Shown one piece after another: positions 7,294 to 18,557 of a stretch of DNA of 18,557 nt. Made by a program: the position numbers and the translations under genes. The stretch is from Tumidithrix helvetica PCC 7403. Its GTDB lineage: Bacteria; Cyanobacteriota; Cyanobacteriia; Pseudanabaenales; Pseudanabaenaceae. The stretch is from the NCBI RefSeq assembly GCF_965232925.1, contig NZ_CBDDRA010000001.1, forward strand, positions 128,001 to 146,557, written 5' to 3'. The notes below the pieces were generated by a model that worked only from the letters and a program-made list of their open reading frames with translations, did not search any database and was not told the DNA's origin. Each line of letters begins with the position of its first letter. Position 1 is the first letter of the stretch.

Positions 7294-8739
7294 ATGGTTC
7301 AGGCGAAAAGTCCCAGCTTCACAAGAGAAGATTGGCAGAAGGGCTATCAATCTTTACGTACCGAGCAGAGTTACTGGATCGATGAGATTGAGGGGGAGAT
7401 TCCATCAGAATTACAAGGCACGCTGTTTCGGAATGGACCTGGTTTGCTCGATGTCAACGGTCAAGCTTACGGACACCCCTTTGATGGTGACGGCATGATC
7501 TGCGCGATCGCTTTTACCGATGGCAAAGCCCACTTCGCCAATAGCTTTGTCAAAACTCCCGAATTTCTTGCCGAGCAAAAAGAGGGGCGCATTCTCTATC
7601 GTGGTGTCTTTGGGACGCAAAAGCCGGGGGGCTGGTGGCAAAATCTGTTCGATCTCAAACTCAAGAATATCGCCAATACCAACGTTATCTACCACGGGAA
7701 GAGGCTTTTGGCTTTATGGGAGGCTAGCTTACCCTATCGACTCGATCCTAAAAACCTTGATACGCTTGGGGTAGAAACATTTAATGGGGCTTTAGCAGCA
7801 GGAAAGGCATTCACAGCGCATCCTAGACTCGATCCTGAGACTGGAGATCTCTGGGCTTTTGGAGTCGATGCAGGTCCAAAGTCAACCATTACGATCTATA
7901 GGATCGATCCTCAAGGCGAACTTACGGAATCTTGCAGTCAAAAAGTGTCGGGATTCTGCTTTTTACATGATTTTGCTTACACCCCTAACTACCGCATCTT
8001 TTTACAGAATCCCGTCTCGTTTGATTCCTTGCCATTTATCTTTGGCTTGAAAACCGCAGGGGCTTGTATCGATCTCAAACCCAATACACCGACAAAAATT
8101 CTGTTGTTCGATCGCTCGGGCAAACTGACAACCCTAGAAACCGACCCCGGATTTGTGTTTCACCACTGCAATGCCTTTGAACGAGGGGATGAAATCATCC
8201 TAGATTCGGTGTGCTATCAGGACTATCCCAAGCTAGAACCCAATGTTGACTATAAGAATGTGAATTTTGACACCGTTGTACCTGGGAAACTTTTCCGCTT
8301 TCGGATTAATCCCAAGACGGGCAGCGTCAGCCGTGAAATTTTGCTCGATCGCTCCTGTGAATTTCCGACAATTCATCCGCGCTGTGTGGGGCAACCTTAC
8401 CGCTATGCCTATATCGGCGCGATCGCCCAGCCCACAGGCAATGCCCCACTCCAAGCAATTCTCAAAATCGACCTAGAAACGGGCAAACAAGAAGCACATA
8501 GCTTTGCCCCAAGGGGCTTTATCGGAGAGCCTGTGTTTGTGCCGCGCAATGCCTCAGCTACGAGTGCTGAAGATGATGGCTGGATTATTACATTGATCTT
8601 TAATGCTGAGCGCGATCGCTCTGATGTCGTTATTCTCGACGCTCAAAATATCGCGGCTGCACCTGTGGCAACCTTGCACCTAAAACACCATGTCCCCTAT
8701 GGATTGCATGGCAACTTCACGCCCGAAGTCTGGCATTAA
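7294..8739 (+). CDS. Carotenoid cleavage oxygenase (RPE65 family; apocarotenoid-15,15'-oxygenase-like).
   Basis: FRNGPG...HPFDGDGM motif, conserved His residues (HHCNAFE, etc.), length about 480 aa. Confidence 0.85.
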   Translation: MVQAKSPSFTREDWQKGYQSLRTEQSYWIDEIEGEIPSELQGTLFRNGPGLLDVNGQAYGHPFDGDGMICAIAFTDGKAHFANSFVKTPEFLAEQKEGRILYRGVFGTQKPGGWWQNLFDLKLKNIANTNVIYHGKRLLALWEASLPYRLDPKNLDTLGVETFNGALAAGKAFTAHPRLDPETGDLWAFGVDAGPKSTITIYRIDPQGELTESCSQKVSGFCFLHDFAYTPNYRIFLQNPVSFDSLPFIFGLKTAGACIDLKPNTPTKILLFDRSGKLTTLETDPGFVFHHCNAFERGDEIILDSVCYQDYPKLEPNVDYKNVNFDTVVPGKLFRFRINPKTGSVSREILLDRSCEFPTIHPRCVGQPYRYAYIGAIAQPTGNAPLQAILKIDLETGKQEAHSFAPRGFIGEPVFVPRNASATSAEDDGWIITLIFNAERDRSDVVILDAQNIAAAPVATLHLKHHVPYGLHGNFTPEVWH

Positions 8740-8852
8740 ATCCCTCAATACCCCACCCAGCCTCCCCTTGAACTAGCCGCGAAGCGACTTCCCGCAGGGT
8801 AGACTACGGTGTACACACAAGTCGTCAAACCGAGTTAAATCAAAGGTTTATT

Positions 8853-8920
8853 GCCCCCTAGCCCCCAATTCTGGGGAAGGATTCTTAAAGTTCCCCAGAA
8901 TTGGGGGATTTAGGGGGCTA
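8853..8920. repeat. Copy 1 of a C5/G5-rich palindromic dispersed element (GCCCCCTAGCCCCCAATTCTGGGGAA-loop-TTCCCCAGAATTGGGGGATTTAGGGGGC), intergenic between the convergent oxygenase and rpmF genes.
   Basis: A stem of about 26 bp with one bulge, read directly. Shares the CCCCC-YRG-CCCCC terminal motif with the elements at 16251 and 17788. Confidence 0.7.
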
Positions 8921-8949
8921 GATCGATTGAAACAAGGTAGTCTGTCTAA

Positions 8950-8980
8950 ACGAAAATAGGGGCGAACAGCCGTTCGTCCC
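8950..8980 (-). terminator. rpmF intrinsic terminator: GGGACGAAC-GGCT-GTTCGCCCC hairpin on the minus strand, followed by UAUUUUCGUUU.
   Basis: Hairpin plus T-rich tail about 48 nt downstream of the rpmF stop; one mismatch in the stem. Confidence 0.5.
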
Positions 8981-9028
8981 TACCGATATATGTGGTGAAG
9001 TATTTGGTAAAACCTATGATGAGGCTAC

Positions 9029-9211
9029 TTATTCCTCGTCCTCGTCTCCTTCTTCCGCAGCTAAAGGATAGATAAATCCTTTGTTTTGACCTGTCAAAAT
9101 GGATTTGCCTAAAGAAATCGCTTTTTGTGCTGCTACGCCAGCCTTGCGCTTCCAAGCTGCTTTACGAATATTCTTTTTGGACTTTGATGTGCGTTTCTTG
9201 GGGACTGCCAT
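9029..9211 (-). CDS. rpmF: 50S ribosomal protein L32.
   Basis: [24 protein letters not shown]... is the canonical L32 N-terminus; 60 aa. Confidence 0.9.
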
Positions 9212-9340
9212 AACTTTGCTTTATGTTTTTGATATGAGTCGGTAAATTTTTCGGCTTTTTTATTCTAAGCCATGTCTTTAGTTTGCGATCGCGATTTATA
9301 ACTATAACATTGTACAGAACCTAAAATCATGCTCTGAGAA

Positions 9341-9628
9341 TTACTTTCTTGGCATTTGCGTTACATTACTGCGGTCTTGATTGCTCCTGCCTTGATGCTG
9401 ATTTTCCTCTTGGGCGTTATACAAAAGCAGTAAAAGCCCAGCGATCAATACACCGAGAAACACAAACTGATTAATCGGAATATTGGGTTTTTTCTTTTTA
9501 AATTCTTCTTTCTTTTTGATCGAGCGCTCTAAGCCACATTTCAAACATACATAGCGAAACGGGTCGGTTGGATCGACAACAAAGCAGCAATTCCCTTGAT
9601 GGTTATCCTCTTTACAGGCTTGTGACAT
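9341..9628 (-). CDS. Hypothetical small protein with a Cys cluster (CxxxxxxxCC...CxxC, zinc-ribbon-like) followed by one predicted TM helix (FVFLGVLIAGLLLLLY).
   Basis: Complete ORF upstream of rpmF on the same strand. No recognisable family, and the start is not validated. Confidence 0.35.
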   Translation of the reverse strand: MSQACKEDNHQGNCCFVVDPTDPFRYVCLKCGLERSIKKKEEFKKKKPNIPINQFVFLGVLIAGLLLLLYNAQEENQHQGRSNQDRSNVTQMPRK

Positions 9629-13894: not shown

Positions 13895-15241
13895 TTGAAC
13901 GCTGAAATTGCTAGGATACGGGTATCGCTCTGGATGTACGGCATGGATCTCGAACTTTCCCGTTTTCTCAAGGCTTGTAACCCCACCCATCCTCTTGATG
14001 CGAGTAATCCAGAGGATCTCAGCTATTATGTCGATCTCTCGTCAGTGCGTGGGGCTGAGTTGATTAAAAGTTTGAAACGGACGATCGCTGTGATTTCGCC
14101 CGATGAGGCAACTTGTCAGTTATTTACGGGGCATATTGGCTGCGGCAAATCAACGGAATTATTGCGACTGAAGAACGAACTAGAAAAGCAAAAGTTTCAC
14201 GTTGCCTATTTTGAGTGCGACAAGCAGCTTGAGTTGAGCGATGTCGATGCTAGCGACGTGTTGCTGGCGATCGCGGGGCAAATTAGTGAGGGACTTGAGA
14301 AGGAAAATATCAGCATCGTTTCCGCATATTTCACAAAGTTATTTGGCGAGCTGAAAGATTTGCTGCAAACCAAGGTCGAGCTGAATGCAAATTTTAAACT
14401 ATCGGTTGGAATTGCCGAAATTACCGCTCAAGCAAAACACAGTCAATCGTTGCGTCGTCAGATTCACGAACGTTTAGAATCACGGACAAACAGCATTATT
14501 ACAGCGATTAATAACGAGTTGTTAAAACCAGCACGAGAAAAGTTAAAAGCAAAGGGCATGAAGGGATTGGTGGTGATTGTGGATAACCTCGATCGCATTG
14601 AAAATCGCATCGACCCTAAAGAACAATCGCGGGCGGGATATCTATTTGTGGAACGGGGCGATCAGTTGCGGGGCTTAGATTGCCATCTGGTCTATACGGT
14701 TCCCTTACTGCTGACCTTCTCGAATGATGCGGCGATCGTTACGGGTCGGTTTGGTACGGAAATTAAGACGCTACCGATGATTCCTGCGCGTTTAGCTGAT
14801 GGGAGTGAATGTGAAGAGGGAATGGCACTATTGCGACAGATCGTGATGGCAAGGGCATTTCCGACGCTTAGCCCCTTGCAAAGGATTGAGGATGTCCATG
14901 TTAAAGCTGTATTTGATTCGCCGCAAACGCTCGATCGCTTGTGTCAGGTGAGTGGAGGGCACGTTCGCAATCTATTTCGGTTTCTGCTGGGTTGTTTGCA
15001 GCAGGACGATCCGCCGATTTCGGCGAGTTTGCTAGAAAGTATCATTGCCAACGAACGCAATAAAATGCGTAAGATTATTACGGATGATGAATGGGAATTG
15101 ATTCGGAAGGTGCATCAGGATAAGCGGCTGAGCGGAGAAGCGCAGTATCAGATGCTGATTAAGAGCCAATTTGTGTTTGAGTATGAATATCAAGGGAATG
15201 GTTGGTTTGATTGCAATCCGATTTTAGATAAACTGTTATAG
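13895..15241 (+). CDS. P-loop NTPase of unknown family (Walker A TGHIGCGKST, Walker B LVVIVDNLD), 448 aa, immediately upstream of the giant NTPase-WD40 gene.
   Basis: Motifs read directly. The track start is a TTG; the real start may be the ATG at 13934 or 13943. Confidence 0.7.
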   Translation: MNAEIARIRVSLWMYGMDLELSRFLKACNPTHPLDASNPEDLSYYVDLSSVRGAELIKSLKRTIAVISPDEATCQLFTGHIGCGKSTELLRLKNELEKQKFHVAYFECDKQLELSDVDASDVLLAIAGQISEGLEKENISIVSAYFTKLFGELKDLLQTKVELNANFKLSVGIAEITAQAKHSQSLRRQIHERLESRTNSIITAINNELLKPAREKLKAKGMKGLVVIVDNLDRIENRIDPKEQSRAGYLFVERGDQLRGLDCHLVYTVPLLLTFSNDAAIVTGRFGTEIKTLPMIPARLADGSECEEGMALLRQIVMARAFPTLSPLQRIEDVHVKAVFDSPQTLDRLCQVSGGHVRNLFRFLLGCLQQDDPPISASLLESIIANERNKMRKIITDDEWELIRKVHQDKRLSGEAQYQMLIKSQFVFEYEYQGNGWFDCNPILDKLL

Positions 15242-15257
15242 GCATCTCGGCTACATC

Positions 15258-18200
15258 ATGGACGAGGAAATCGCATCCACTGCCACGCTCAACCAAAACT
15301 CTCTCAGGCTACTGAAGCGAGTCGCCACCAACGCGCAGGGATTTTCGCTGTCGATCGCTTTGTGTAACTATCGATCGCTGCAAAACCGTTACTTGGCAGA
15401 ATTAACAGCGCAATTGCCCGATCGGGCAATTGCCACAATCGAATTGGAACCCGATGCGACGACATTGCTGACACTGGTTCAGGATTTGATGGAGACGGTC
15501 GCACACGAACCGCCAGAGCGTCAGCCTAAGGTATTGATGGTATTGGGGCTAGAAGAGGTCAAAGATGTTTCTGCGGTACTGCAATCAGCAAATCGCGTGC
15601 GGGAAGAATTTGCCAACTGCCTAGATTTTCCGATGGTGCTCTGGCTCAACGATCGTACGCAGGATATTCTGACTCGCGATGCTAGCGATTTGGCGAACTG
15701 GGTAACAGCGGGGGCGCTCGAGTTTCGGTTTACGCCTGCGGAACTCGTGGGGTTTTTGCGCGAAACTACGGAATCGCTGTTTGCGAGATTTCTCAATCCT
15801 GAAACCGATGGGATGTTTCGCGGGGGGGCGATCGCCAAGGGCTTGCAAAAATTTGAGCTTGAGACCGCCGTGAAGGAGTTACAAGCCTCTGGGCAAGTTC
15901 TCAATCCCGAACTCGCGGCAAATTTGGATTTTGCCTTTGGGTTTTGCGCTTTATTGGAGAAGGAATTCGCCTCAGCAAAGCAGTCGTTTGGCAAGAGTTT
16001 GGAGGTTTGGCGTGGGAGGAACGCGCTAAAGCAGGCGGCTTGTTTGTTTCAGGTCGGGGTGTGCGATCGCACAGTAGCATTTCACCGTCGCTATGATAAG
16101 GTTCCGTTTTATCGCCTTGCGAGGGAGAGTTTTGCCGAAGCAATCGCGATTTTTCGAGATTTGGGGCGATCGGATTTGGTGGCAGAGTATCTTAATTTTT
16201 TGATGGCTGTGGTGGAGGATTTGGCACGGTTGGATAGGGATTTGAAGAGATCCCCCCCAGCCCCCCTTAATAAGGGGGGAGAATTTATTAGGGGTAAAGA
16301 GTTATTTGAGGAATTGGAGGGGTTGGCGCGGGAGGCGTTGGGACTGCGGCAGCGGTATCCAAATTTGTTGAAGGAGGCGCACGATCGCGGCATGATGGCG
16401 GCGGTAAAGATTGCGTTTGGGGAATATGTCGAGGCGCAGCAGTTTGCGGAGGGGGCACTGGCGCTATATCGAGAGGCGGAGAGGCAGCAGTTGCCCAATT
16501 TGGCTTGGACGCGACGTTATATCTATGGGCTGTATGAGATTTGGTTGGCGCGAGCTTTGGCAGGGCAGGGCAAGAGGGCAGAGGCGATCGCGGGTTTAGA
16601 GGGGGTGCGATCGCAGTGGCGGCATCAGTACGACGCGCAGATCTATGTGGGGGTGCTGGAAGAGTTGCGATCGCAATACACGCAGGCGGGGCGCTATCTC
16701 GATGCCTTTCATACAAAGCAGCACCAGCGATCGGTGGAGCAGCAGTATGGGTTGCGGGCGTTTATCGGGGCGGGAATGCTGCATCCCAGTCGGGAGGAGG
16801 TCGATCCTGCGACGGCGGCGATCGCGTTGCGGCAACCCGATGGCATTGCGGTGGAAATCGTGGCATCGGGCAGAAAGCAAAATGTGGAGGAACTGGTGGA
16901 ACGGATTCGCCAGCCGCGCTATCCCTTGACGGTGATTCATGGGGATTCGGGGGCGGGAAAGAGTTCGATTTTGAATGGTGGGGTCGTGCCTGCGTTGCGA
17001 TCGCGGGAAACGTTGGATGGTCGCAAGGTGCTGGTGTTGACGGTAAATACCTATAAGGAATGGAGTCGCGAGATTGAGCGGCAGTTGCAGGAGTTTTTTG
17101 GTGGTGCGCGTCCCGAGTTGAATCCGATCGAGCATTTTAAGCGCAATGTTGAGGAGAACTATCTGACCGTGTTGGTGTTCGATCAGTTTGAGGATTTCTT
17201 TTTTAAAAAGGAGGATTTTGCCGATCGCTTGCCGTTTTACAAATTCCTGAGAGCCTGTTTGCATACGGATTTTGTCCGAGTGGTGCTGTCGCTGCGCGAG
17301 GACTATCTGCATTATTTATTGGAATGCGATCGCGCCGTGAATCTAGAAAAGGTCGAGAACGATATTCTCGGCAAGCAGATTCGCTATTATTTGGGCGATT
17401 TTACGCCAGAGGAGGCAAGGCGGGTGATTGAGTCGCTGACGGCAAGGGCGGAGGTGAAGCTGGATGCGGATCTGTGCGATCGCTTGGTGGTGGATTTGAC
17501 GGGCGATCGGGGTAGGGTGTTGCCGATTGAGTTGCAGGTAGCGGGGGCGCAACTAGAGTCTGAGGAACCACAAATTTCGACGTTGGCGCAATATTTGGCA
17601 TTGACAAGCGATGTCTCGCAGCGTAAACCCAGTGAGGTTTTAGTGGAGCGCTGGCTAGAGAATGTGGTGAAGGATTGTGGCGAGGGAAATCAAGAGTTGG
17701 CGCAAAGGGTGCTGTACGCGTTGACGGGAATGGAGGAGAAGCGACCGCAAAAAACGCAGGAGGAATTGGCGGCTGAGTTACTGACATCTCCCCCTGCCCC
17801 TCTCCTAAAAGGCGAGGGGAGTAAGAATGAGTCTTTGCTCCCCCTCTCCCATGGGGAGAGGGGGCTGGGGGGAGATGTCAATCTCGAACTGGTGCTGGCG
17901 GTTTTGGTGGGGTCGGGTTTGGCGTTTCGGGTGAGCAGTACGCCAGAGGATCGCTATCAGTTGATTCACGATTATCTGACGGGCTTTATACGGAAGAAGT
18001 ATGGGATTGATGTGAATGCTGAGTTGAGAAAAGAGCGGAAGCGGCGGGAATTGGCGGAACTGGCAAGAGAACAGGCGGAAAAAGAGAAGGAGATATTTGC
18101 AGTTGCGAATCGTAAAGCTGGACAAAGAGTTCGGATCGGTTCAATTATTTTAGGAATTGCATCTATTGCTGCGATCGGAATTAGCATTTATGCAAGCAAA

Positions 18201-18557
18201 GCATTTCAGGCTTCGCAAGAAGCCATAGCGATCACGCAAATCGAAAAACAGAGTGCTGAAGCGGAGAGACTATTTAAAACCCAAGAATTCCAAGCACTTC
18301 TACCCGCAATGAGAGCGACAAAACTGTTAAAGGCGATCGTCAAGGATTCAATGCATACCGAACAATATCCTTCTGTTAGTCCTCTTGGGGCTTTGCAATT
18401 AATTTTGAGAGATGGACAAGAACGCTTACAATTTCGGGCAACTGGTATTGTATTTTCGCCCGATGGTACGAAGCTGGCGACGAGTGGCAGTGACGGCACG
18501 GCTAGGATTTGGGATCTACAGGGCAACCAGATTGCGATTCTCAAAGGGCATCAAGGG
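15258..18557 (+). CDS. Large NLR-like multidomain protein, 3'-truncated at the window end (at least 1100 aa). An N-terminal domain of unknown function is followed by TPR-like helices, a STAND-class P-loop NTPase (Walker A VIHGDSGAGKSSIL; Walker B LTVLVFDQFEDFFF) and a helical region. A coiled coil (ELRKERKRRELAELAREQAEKEKE) and a predicted TM helix (VRIGSIILGIASIAAIGISIYA) come next, then the first WD40 repeat (IVFSPDGTKLATSGSDGTARIWDLQG).
   Basis: Hand translation in frame 0 from the ATG at 15258, 17 nt after the upstream stop, to nt 18557 found no stop; the frame was re-checked at 15597, 16551, 16938, 17163, 17820, 18090 and 18528. The frame-0 stop at 15225 precludes an earlier start. The ORF track does not list it because it has no in-window stop. 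The minus-strand ORFs listed here (RRRRR / PPP-rich) are antisense artefacts. Confidence 0.8.
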   Translation, partial: MDEEIASTATLNQNSLRLLKRVATNAQGFSLSIALCNYRSLQNRYLAELTAQLPDRAIATIELEPDATTLLTLVQDLMETVAHEPPERQPKVLMVLGLEEVKDVSAVLQSANRVREEFANCLDFPMVLWLNDRTQDILTRDASDLANWVTAGALEFRFTPAELVGFLRETTESLFARFLNPETDGMFRGGAIAKGLQKFELETAVKELQASGQVLNPELAANLDFAFGFCALLEKEFASAKQSFGKSLEVWRGRNALKQAACLFQVGVCDRTVAFHRRYDKVPFYRLARESFAEAIAIFRDLGRSDLVAEYLNFLMAVVEDLARLDRDLKRSPPAPLNKGGEFIRGKELFEELEGLAREALGLRQRYPNLLKEAHDRGMMAAVKIAFGEYVEAQQFAEGALALYREAERQQLPNLAWTRRYIYGLYEIWLARALAGQGKRAEAIAGLEGVRSQWRHQYDAQIYVGVLEELRSQYTQAGRYLDAFHTKQHQRSVEQQYGLRAFIGAGMLHPSREEVDPATAAIALRQPDGIAVEIVASGRKQNVEELVERIRQPRYPLTVIHGDSGAGKSSILNGGVVPALRSRETLDGRKVLVLTVNTYKEWSREIERQLQEFFGGARPELNPIEHFKRNVEENYLTVLVFDQFEDFFFKKEDFADRLPFYKFLRACLHTDFVRVVLSLREDYLHYLLECDRAVNLEKVENDILGKQIRYYLGDFTPEEARRVIESLTARAEVKLDADLCDRLVVDLTGDRGRVLPIELQVAGAQLESEEPQISTLAQYLALTSDVSQRKPSEVLVERWLENVVKDCGEGNQELAQRVLYALTGMEEKRPQKTQEELAAELLTSPPAPLLKGEGSKNESLLPLSHGERGLGGDVNLELVLAVLVGSGLAFRVSSTPEDRYQLIHDYLTGFIRKKYGIDVNAELRKERKRRELAELAREQAEKEKEIFAVANRKAGQRVRIGSIILGIASIAAIGISIYASKAFQASQEAIAITQIEKQSAEAERLFKTQEFQALLPAMRATKLLKAIVKDSMHTEQYPSVSPLGALQLILRDGQERLQFRATGIVFSPDGTKLATSGSDGTARIWDLQGNQIAILKGHQG
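16251..16281 (+). repeat. Copy 2 (short form) of the C5/G5 palindromic element, TCCCCCCCAGCCCCCCTTAATAAGGGGGGAG, inserted in frame in the large NTPase gene and encoding SPPAPLNKGGE.
   Basis: The palindrome CCCCCCTTA-A-TAAGGGGGG read directly; the reading frame is preserved. Confidence 0.6.
17788..17874 (+). repeat. Copy 3 (long form, two hairpins) of the C5/G5 palindromic element, inserted in frame in the large NTPase gene and encoding SPPAPLLKGEGSKNESLLPLSHGERGLGGD.
   Basis: Hairpin 1 is CCCCTCTCC-TAAAA-GGCGAGGGG. Hairpin 2 is CCCCCTCTCCC-ATG-GGGAGAGGGGG (11-bp perfect stem). Terminal motifs are TCCCCCTGCCCC and GGGGGCTGGGGGGA. Same frame and orientation as copy 2. Confidence 0.7.

Follow-up and report, generated by a model that had tools for sequence, protein, structure and literature searches.

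Palindromic C/G hairpin repeats at two recurrently occupied in-frame sites of an nSTAND1-WD40 gene in Tumidithrix helvetica

How can a gene carry two palindromic DNA repeats inside its reading frame and still encode an unbroken protein, and where do such segments come from? The question is raised by an 18,557-nucleotide stretch of Tumidithrix helvetica PCC 7403 (contig NZ_CBDDRA010000001.1, positions 128,001 to 146,557; hereafter the window), in which a gene for an nSTAND1-WD40 protein contains two C- and G-rich palindromic elements, here called E1 and E2. The original prediction, made from the letters of the window, described the same short repeat inserted twice into this gene, the second time as a long copy. 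Both elements are where it placed them, in identical orientation and codon phase and with the shared reading SPPAPL.KG, and the frame stays open through both. They are not the same repeat, however, since E1 is a monomer of one subtype (type A) and E2 an inverted dimer of another (type B). We think it probable that both are members of a large family of hairpin repeats with C5-7/G5-7 stems that has been inserted and overwritten at two permissive loops of the gene. Events of this kind, in-frame insertions resembling repetitive extragenic palindromes (REPs) and their doublets forming hairpins (REPINs), are already known, and the family itself is apparently without a name.

E1 is composed of a 5' box (GATCCCCCCCAG), a hairpin (CCCCCCTT-AAT-AAGGGGGG) and a closing AGAA, and it reads (R)SPPAPLNKGGE, residues 332-342 of the host protein. 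E2 is built of a left box and hairpin (17786-17821), the spacer AGTAAGAATGAGTCTTTG, and a right hairpin and box (17838-17876); its internal hairpins lie at 17797-17819 (CCCCTCTCCT-aaa-AGGCGAGGGG) and 17840-17864 (CCCCCTCTCCC-atg-GGGAGAGGGGG), and its 23-nt terminal inverted repeats (17782-17804 and 17858-17880) are 83% complementary. In the host frame E2 reads SPPAPLLKGEGSKNESLLPLSHGERGLGGD, beginning SPPAPLLKGEG, and its peptide, TSPPAPLLKGEGSKNESLLPLSHGERGLGGD, occupies residues 843-873. The stems of the two subtypes differ (CCCCCCTT/AAGGGGGG in E1, CCCCTCTCC/GGAGAGGGG in E2), and what the elements have in common is limited to the 5' box, TC(T)CCCCC-YRG-CCCC. With at most one mismatch, the motif CCCCCYRGCCCC occurs three times in the window against 0.20 expected, a count reached by none of 200 shuffles, and the third occurrence belongs to an intergenic dimer of a third subtype, E3, evidence of the family's dispersal in this genome. 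When folded as single-stranded DNA, E2 and E3 reach -35 kcal/mol (z -6.8) and -28.7 kcal/mol (z -7.2), respectively. Each unit of the family has an ATC-C5-7-YRG box on the 5' side of a C-run/G-run hairpin; units occur as singlets or as inverted doublets folding as one long hairpin. Four of the six frames of E1 and two of the six of E2 are free of stops, and the copies surviving within genes would be only those whose length is a multiple of three and which landed in a stop-free frame. That the inserts are translated is suggested by the intact open reading frame (ORF) together with the database annotation.

Orthologues of the host gene settle whether these segments were inserted. A protein search returned 53 homologues, nearly all from the Pseudanabaenaceae, and in alignments the places occupied by E1 (site 1) and E2 (site 2) are the sole large indel regions in the N-terminal 900 residues, the segment between fixed anchors ranging over the 53 homologues from 11 to 54 residues at site 1 and from 13 to 81 at site 2. 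We read both sites at the DNA level in seven orthologues. Site 2 is empty in L003 (...GAGTTGTTG|GCTGAGGAAAAT...); it holds a type-B dimer in T. helvetica, L002 and L146, a canonical type-A dimer (CGATCCCCCCCAGCCCCCCTTAAAAAGGGGGGAGAA...CCCCCTTTTTAAGGGGGAT...GGGGGATC) in Pseudanabaena biceps (L125), an E3-type dimer (GCCCCCCTAGCCCCCCAATTCTGGGGGG...GGGGGATTTAGGGGGCTAG) in Pseudanabaena sp. Chao 1811 (L124), and in Tumidithrix elongata (L001) a hybrid made up of a remnant of a type-B left arm and then a type-A unit. At site 1, L146 is empty, T. helvetica, T. elongata and L002 carry a type-A singlet, and L003, L124 and another Pseudanabaena (L126) carry two or three type-B units. The existence of empty alleles at both sites identifies E1 and E2 as insertions, and the presence of different subfamilies at identical codon positions identifies the sites as recurrent or overwritten hot spots: in a single bacterial family, one codon-level position has held three different subfamilies or stood empty. 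The original prediction was thus right to regard the segments as insertions, but they are not simple private events, the hot spots being long-standing and shared among three subfamilies across the Pseudanabaenaceae. We also considered the sequence 3' of E1 (TTTATTAGGGGTAAAG...GAGGAATTGGAGGGG) as a decayed right half of a dimer and rejected it, the part coding for ELEGLA being native in all orthologues, empty ones included.

Table 1. Elements and genes of the window, with positions counted from its first nucleotide
Feature	Position	Strand	Description
E1, single type-A unit	16249-16283	+	35 nt; sequence GATCCCCCCCAGCCCCCCTTAATAAGGGGGGAGAA; hairpin 16261-16279
E2, inverted dimer of type-B units (REPIN/MITE-like)	17782-17880	+	99 nt = 33 codons
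E3, inverted dimer of a third subtype	8851-8920		70 nt, intergenic; CCCCCTAGCCCCC-AATTCT-GGGG ... CCCCAGAATTGGGGGATTTAGGGGGCTAG
Host gene, nSTAND1-WD40 STAND NTPase, partial	15258..18557	+	one open frame; N-terminal helical/TPR region, transmembrane segment, WD40 repeats
Upstream gene, KAP/AAA_22/NPHP3_N-type P-loop NTPase	13895-15241	+	448 aa; directly 5' of host gene

Where the inserts fall in the protein bears on how they could be tolerated. E2 interrupts the nSTAND1 domain, the match to which ends at residue 842 (profile position 306); when E1 and E2 are deleted, the match runs through the junction to profile position 340. An AlphaFold2 model of residues 520-930 has a mean predicted local distance difference test (pLDDT) score of 79 and drops below 50 at residues 1-4 and 325-353 of the fragment. 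The latter correspond to residues 844-872, that is, to the E2 peptide, and are flanked by helices at 315-324 and 357-367, downstream of which the model has a β-hairpin in a winged-helix-like arrangement. In an AlphaFold model of residues 1-526 (mean pLDDT 83), values below 50 are found at 331-343, the E1 peptide, between helices at 305-328 and 347-366. The prediction for both peptides is therefore a floppy loop joining two helices: if the models are right, the first landing loop separates two helices of the N-terminal helical-repeat region and the second a pair of helices in the winged-helix part of the NTPase module. The proposal of Pro/Gly-rich segments in an NLR-like protein agrees with the Pfam assignments and with these low-confidence loops. 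On translation, surviving copies would give loops rich in Pro and Gly, probably disordered and tolerated by the protein, and the peptides are most likely carried as neutral passengers, not selected as linkers.

Domain and helix boundaries are a common place for variable linkers, and both inserts lie at such boundaries, as they would if slippage or duplication had produced them in place as native Pro/Gly spacers. Against this, the DNA is palindromic, the same sequences recur between genes of the window and, letter for letter, in hundreds of unrelated loci and phyla, third codon positions are conserved and not free (see below), and the subtypes found at one site are not interconvertible by slippage. 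Some orthologues are empty, and the genomes carrying the inserts hold the family elsewhere, so the segments are not conserved parts of the protein in genomes devoid of the repeat. An origin as native linkers is effectively refuted. What is seen instead is a pair of loops in an NLR-like gene that serve as landing pads and have been filled, swapped and emptied many times in one family, adding from 0 to about 68 residues and leaving the protein unbroken. In-frame palindromic repeats are a little-charted source of variation in protein length, and for annotation it follows that such segments, which interrupt domain models, should be treated as repeat-derived and not as conserved motifs.

The inserts also evolve differently from the gene around them. 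Outside the inserts, the genes of T. helvetica and L002 are 68.9% identical, with 52% identity at third codon positions, whereas E1 matches at 34 of 36 positions (94%) and E2 at 91 of 102 (89%), with 41 of 46 third codon positions identical (Fisher p = 2e-7); in the right hairpin of E2 the changes are confined to the loop and the stem is preserved. The comparison with T. elongata gives the opposite picture, as the gene is 90.6% identical while the E2 region matches at only 38 of 72 positions (p = 5e-16), indicating that E2 has been replaced in T. elongata. Such near-identity or wholesale replacement is the pattern of a multi-copy element under concerted evolution, and constraint on the hairpin is compatible with it too. 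In T. elongata itself, the units at site 1 and site 2 have an identical 19-nt hairpin, loop included (CCCCCCTTGATAAGGGGGG; L001 10992-11010 and 12561-12579, 1.5 kb apart). Loops vary widely across the repeat family, so this identity suggests that one site of the gene was copied into the other. The hybrid at site 2 in this way supports gene conversion or template switching between copies, and one of these is probably behind the overwriting of occupied sites.

Those same observations invite the view that no dedicated enzyme is involved at all, homologous or microhomology-driven gene conversion, or template switching at the C-runs and G-runs, being enough to spread the family and to overwrite an occupied site repeatedly. 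The T. elongata hybrid, whose type-A hairpin and loop are those of its own site 1, fits this well, as do replacement that is all-or-none rather than a gradual divergence, the lack of target-site duplications, and the lack of a transposase found near copies. It leaves unexplained, however, both the first arrival of a unit at an empty site and the near-identity of units across many phyla and phage contigs, and we regard it as a possible but doubtful account of the whole. We lean somewhat further towards a REP/REPIN-like route directed by single-stranded hairpins, whether by an HUH/Y1-type enzyme or by hairpin-primed template switching, to which we would still give a little less than an even chance. 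Gene conversion between copies would assist such a route and would hold resident copies near the family consensus.

The ends of the elements speak to a further mechanism. In 27 of the 30 canonical type-A dimers there is no direct repeat (0 nt) at the junctions, and in the other three it amounts to 2 nt; the inverted symmetry of the dimer ends carries on for 1-2 nt, and E2 is flanked by TGACA/TGTCA, which is inverted and not direct. The lack of direct repeats at dimer ends argues against a MITE (miniature inverted-repeat transposable element) of the DDE type. A classical MITE would be a deletion derivative of an insertion sequence (IS), moved by a DDE transposase that acts on its terminal inverted repeats and duplicates the target. 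E2, E3 and the canonical dimers do have terminal inverted repeats, E2 and E3 measure 70-99 nt, and MITEs, which are able to fuse with ORFs, are plentiful in cyanobacteria (PMC3184786). Singlets such as E1, on the other hand, have no terminal inverted repeats, and neither an IS with matching termini nor a recurrent transposase was seen in about 1.1 Mb of flanks; taken with the missing duplications, this makes a classical MITE quite unlikely.

A search for an autonomous partner likewise returned no transposase. When 1,976 ORFs taken from 137 loci were clustered all against all, no recurrent transposase family emerged. Two distant inverted pairs (L035 and L050) were considered as candidates and set aside, as they enclose an NtrC-type regulator and an SMC/DndD-like ATPase, and the ORFs tightly bracketed by inverted units encode FabZ-like, GHMP-kinase-like or phage proteins.

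Several points weigh against insertion of a mobile repeat family as the source of E1 and E2, or against the route suggested for it. For T. helvetica the count is confined to 28.5 kb (the window and 10 kb upstream of it, L144), in which there are three elements, two of them in the host gene, and the additional 10 kb holds no further unit. E1 folds at just -8.7 kcal/mol (z -2.3), modestly above shuffles. Against the more distant L146, the E2-type dimer retains both hairpins but its 73.5% identity is not significantly different from the 67.5% of the gene. Neither a RAYT (REP-associated tyrosine transposase) nor any other transposase lies near any copy in the roughly 1.1 Mb of flanks, whole genomes being outside this search, and the mechanism is accordingly read from architecture. 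The 5' tag here is CCAG, CTAG or CCTG and not the GTAG/CGTC that marks the REP superfamilies examined to date (PMC3733652). Finally, site 1 and site 2 are occupied in most orthologues, which is equally expected of a useful linker, and the excess conservation of E1 and E2 against L002 could reflect a selected function of the DNA or RNA.

The last two points lead to the alternative that the inserts, or the hairpins formed by their DNA or RNA, have been retained for use, for instance as flexible linkers that tune the STAND switch or as mRNA hairpins acting in translation, stability or transcription. Most orthologues do hold some element at both sites, E1 and E2 are far better conserved with respect to L002 than synonymous sites are, and the E1 hairpin, with AGAATTTATT after it, has a terminator-like score. 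Set against these are the empty alleles at both sites, the fillings by different subfamilies that encode different peptides of 0 to +68 residues, the replacement of E2 in the closest relative, the low-confidence loops predicted for both peptides, and the presence of the same units in many unrelated genes and in intergenic DNA. Exaptation of this kind is, in our judgment, unlikely. E1 was examined as a terminator after being flagged by a pattern scan and was rejected, terminator-like matches in the region numbering 6 against 3.8 ± 1.6 by chance.

The family itself extends well beyond these sites. Scanning species-representative genomes with the pattern CCCCCAGCCCCCCTTN{1,7}AAGGGGGG, which captures subtype A only, we found the type-A unit near-verbatim in at least 120 genomic stretches, about 78 of them cyanobacterial and about 42 from other groups according to record titles, metagenome-assembled genomes (MAGs) included. 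The cyanobacterial carriers are Pseudanabaena, T. elongata (two further contigs), Microcoleus, Lyngbya, Calothrix, Moorena, Spirulina, Prochloron and others, so the expectation that E1 and E2 are copies of a dispersed palindromic repeat family is borne out in the genomes of relatives, which hold units elsewhere. Other carriers are found among the Beta-, Gamma- and Deltaproteobacteria, Calidithermus (Deinococcota), Chloroflexota, Nitrospirota/Nitrospinota, Ignavibacteria, Deferribacteres and a bacterium of the candidate phyla radiation; cultured isolates among the non-cyanobacterial carriers include Lysobacter sp. Root916, Calidithermus chliarophilus DSM 9957 and Geomonas edaphica. Units are 26-35 nt long, and the flanks of the type-A unit are conserved as well, as (G/A)ATCC...AG, with one extra T·A pair in the stem of the proteobacterial variant. 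The common full form of type A is an inverted doublet of 72-95 nt, GATCCCCCCCAG-CCCCCCTT..AAGGGGGG-spacer-CCCCCTT..AAGGGGG-ATTGA-GGGGGATC, of which the 30 canonical dimers were found. Cyanobacterial plasmids contain multiple copies of all three subtypes, in up to 14 places on one 217-kb Pseudanabaena plasmid, and the type-A unit is present in 17 IMG/VR viral contigs. A Geobacter MAG contig (L021) and an IMG/VR contig (L135), both of which encode a terminase-like protein, agree fully in the element as well as in its flanks, and the Geobacter copy is probably in a prophage. In Calidithermus chliarophilus (L008, L045, L046, L094) and C. roseus (L101, L116) the type-A unit lies within a composite repeat, ordered as a GC-rich hairpin (e.g. 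CCCCGCC..GGCGGGG), the type-A unit and tandem heptamers (GGCGTTT / GACGTAC).

Residence inside genes is typical of the family and not peculiar to the host gene. Among 131 units sampled, 45 fall within stop-free frames that are 200 or more codons long and extend 40 or more codons to either side of the unit, although some of these frames may be spurious in GC-rich genomes, and all ten of the cyanobacterial gene-internal units that we tested are flanked by Pfam domains. The genes concerned encode CobN, MutS, RsmE, a Ser/Thr kinase domain, a histidine kinase, an Eco57I-type methylase, CHAT/TPR proteins, a NACHT-HEAT protein and a CHAT-AAA_16-TPR protein. In CobN, at about residues 197-217, units are present in Microcoleus (L073 and L085, antisense) and in Pseudanabaena (L102, sense, with a second cluster downstream), and the site is an independent case of a re-used permissive loop, here in a housekeeping enzyme. 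Defence genes seem to be frequent carriers. Methyltransferase genes of Pseudanabaena plasmids contain E2-type dimers, one of them in a gene for a 1457-aa DNA methyltransferase beside DISARM drmD (Pseudanabaena galeata plasmid pPg_01, L145 3001-3089), and others are found inside the BREX methyltransferase gene pglX in Nostoc and inside cas10d in Stanieria. Stops occur in every one of the six frames of an intact canonical type-A doublet (74 nt); in the gene-internal version of L125 the spacer is altered. In T. elongata an E3-type unit (L001 17868-17892) overlaps the first 30 or so codons of an annotated aminotransferase gene (16662-17963, minus strand), which is either an N-terminal in-frame insertion or a start codon called too far upstream.

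Known repeat systems share much of this behavior. In-frame palindromic repeats have been described for Rickettsia palindromic elements (RPEs) and for GTAG/CGTC REPs, with ORFs hit twice and dimers encoding 20-30 residues (PMC3733652; PMC3184786), and REPINs are present in cyanobacteria (PMC3116915). As in REPs and REPINs, the unit is a hairpin of 20-40 nt with a short conserved 5' sequence, occurring as singlets and as inverted doublets that form one long hairpin, multi-copy, occasionally intragenic and free of target-site duplications (PMC3733652; PMC3116915). The family is by this measure a short, dispersed, high-copy palindrome with inverted doublets, the copies having been counted outside T. 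helvetica. Besides the 5' tag already mentioned, it departs from REPs and REPINs in that those are mobilized by RAYT Y1 transposases, none of which was seen in the flanks of about 1.1 Mb, and in that REPs are usually species-specific, whereas the type-A unit is near-identical across about ten bacterial groups.

RPEs (Ogata et al. 2000, cited in PMC3733652 and PMC3184786) are likewise in-frame in functional genes and translated as extra surface segments, with several copies per gene possible. They are larger, confined to Rickettsia and apparently unrelated in sequence, the likeness being one of behavior, and they are not known to show recurrent replacement of one site by several subfamilies. 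Among the cyanobacterial MITEs, Nezha, MaeMITE and the Anabaena MITEs resemble the present elements in being non-autonomous, with terminal inverted repeats, stable hairpins and ORF fusions (PMC3184786). Those MITEs, however, measure 130-435 bp, have flanking direct repeats and end in termini matching known IS elements, while the elements here measure 35-99 nt and have neither direct repeats nor any IS counterpart that we found. The gene-internal share of the present family, about one third of the sampled copies, is also far above the 10% or so of MITE-like elements, about 90% of conserved prokaryotic MITEs being intergenic in a census (PMC11602168). A literature search with the DNA strings CCCCCAGCCCCCC and GGGGGATTTAGGGGGATC and with peptide strings such as KGDLGG and PPQPPL gave no match, only unrelated papers.

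The cyanobacterial small dispersed repeats SDR1-8 of Elhai et al. 2008 are said to be about 21-27 nt long, dispersed, hairpin-capable and often nested in larger repeats. The present elements are like them, compared by description only, in being very short hairpin-capable cyanobacterial repeats and in the nesting seen with E3 and with dimers in Pseudanabaena (L026) and Phormidium lacuna (L056). SDR-like repeats are reported from the Nostocaceae only (PMC5861425), whereas the present family is found mainly outside them, in the Pseudanabaenaceae, many other cyanobacteria and other phyla. The behavior of SDR/MITE-like elements ascribed to the repeats by the original prediction therefore stands as far as dispersed palindromic repeats are concerned, but membership in either named family does not, given that restricted range of SDRs and the absence of a target-site duplication.

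As for the nesting, a box (CTACGGTGTACACACAAGTC) lies at 8812-8831 of the window, just 5' of E3. The same box stands 5' of the type-A dimers in L026 and L056, with an inverted copy (TGTGTACACGGTAG) downstream, so that in these two loci the C/G dimer is nested in a larger composite inverted-repeat element; E3 in the window has the left box only. Rfam at gathering thresholds matched no family in the window or in five element-rich loci, and the sub-threshold microRNA-hairpin look-alikes that its E-value mode, applied to 8600-9350, placed over E3 were dismissed as chance matches.

What stands out as less usual in this family is the alternation of three subfamilies at identical codon positions, the conservation of resident copies at synonymous sites, and a unit near-verbatim across phyla. 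It is tempting to see in the type-A unit, (G/A)ATC-C5-7-AG-CCCCCCTT-loop-AAGGGGGG-AG, and its doublet form an undescribed pan-bacterial class of hairpin element with an exceptional habit of residing in genes, although we offer this as speculation that is more probably wrong than right. If it were true, the conservation would imply a conserved machinery that mobilizes or maintains the element, or a host factor that reads the hairpin. Should the cross-phylum conservation hold, there would be a widespread hairpin-element system, and its copies would amount to a natural map of insertion-tolerant loops across many protein families, CobN, MutS, kinases, STAND NTPases and defence methyltransferases among them.

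The host ORF matches the NCBI entry [quoted passage not shown] at 100% identity, and it stops at 18557 because the end of the window is the end of the contig. Repeat segments of this kind probably contribute to assembly breaks. Pfam places nSTAND1 at residues 538-842 (E 7.9e-31, above the cutoff), TPR_12 at residues 342-406 and a first WD40 repeat at the end, and full-length orthologues have long WD40 arrays. Since a repeat sensor domain comes after the P-loop STAND NTPase module, "NLR-like" is a fair label for the gene.

The gene directly upstream and the nSTAND1-WD40 gene are adjacent in all eight loci examined, the pair being a conserved two-gene unit. For the host gene PADLOC yielded no defence-system call that convinces, and the two-gene unit has a weak match to the PADLOC candidate PDC-S20 (1e-7). 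The spacer between the two genes is 16 nt in T. helvetica, with no C/G hairpin unit; in Pseudanabaena such units are also found in this spacer (L124 9824-9950, L125 9901-9954, L126 9903-9964). A scan of the window for tRNA and tmRNA genes found none. The window contains 33 copies of the HIP1 octamer GCGATCGC where 0.36 are expected, an excess that marks the window as cyanobacterial in origin, and seven of these copies lie within the host gene, between E1 and E2.

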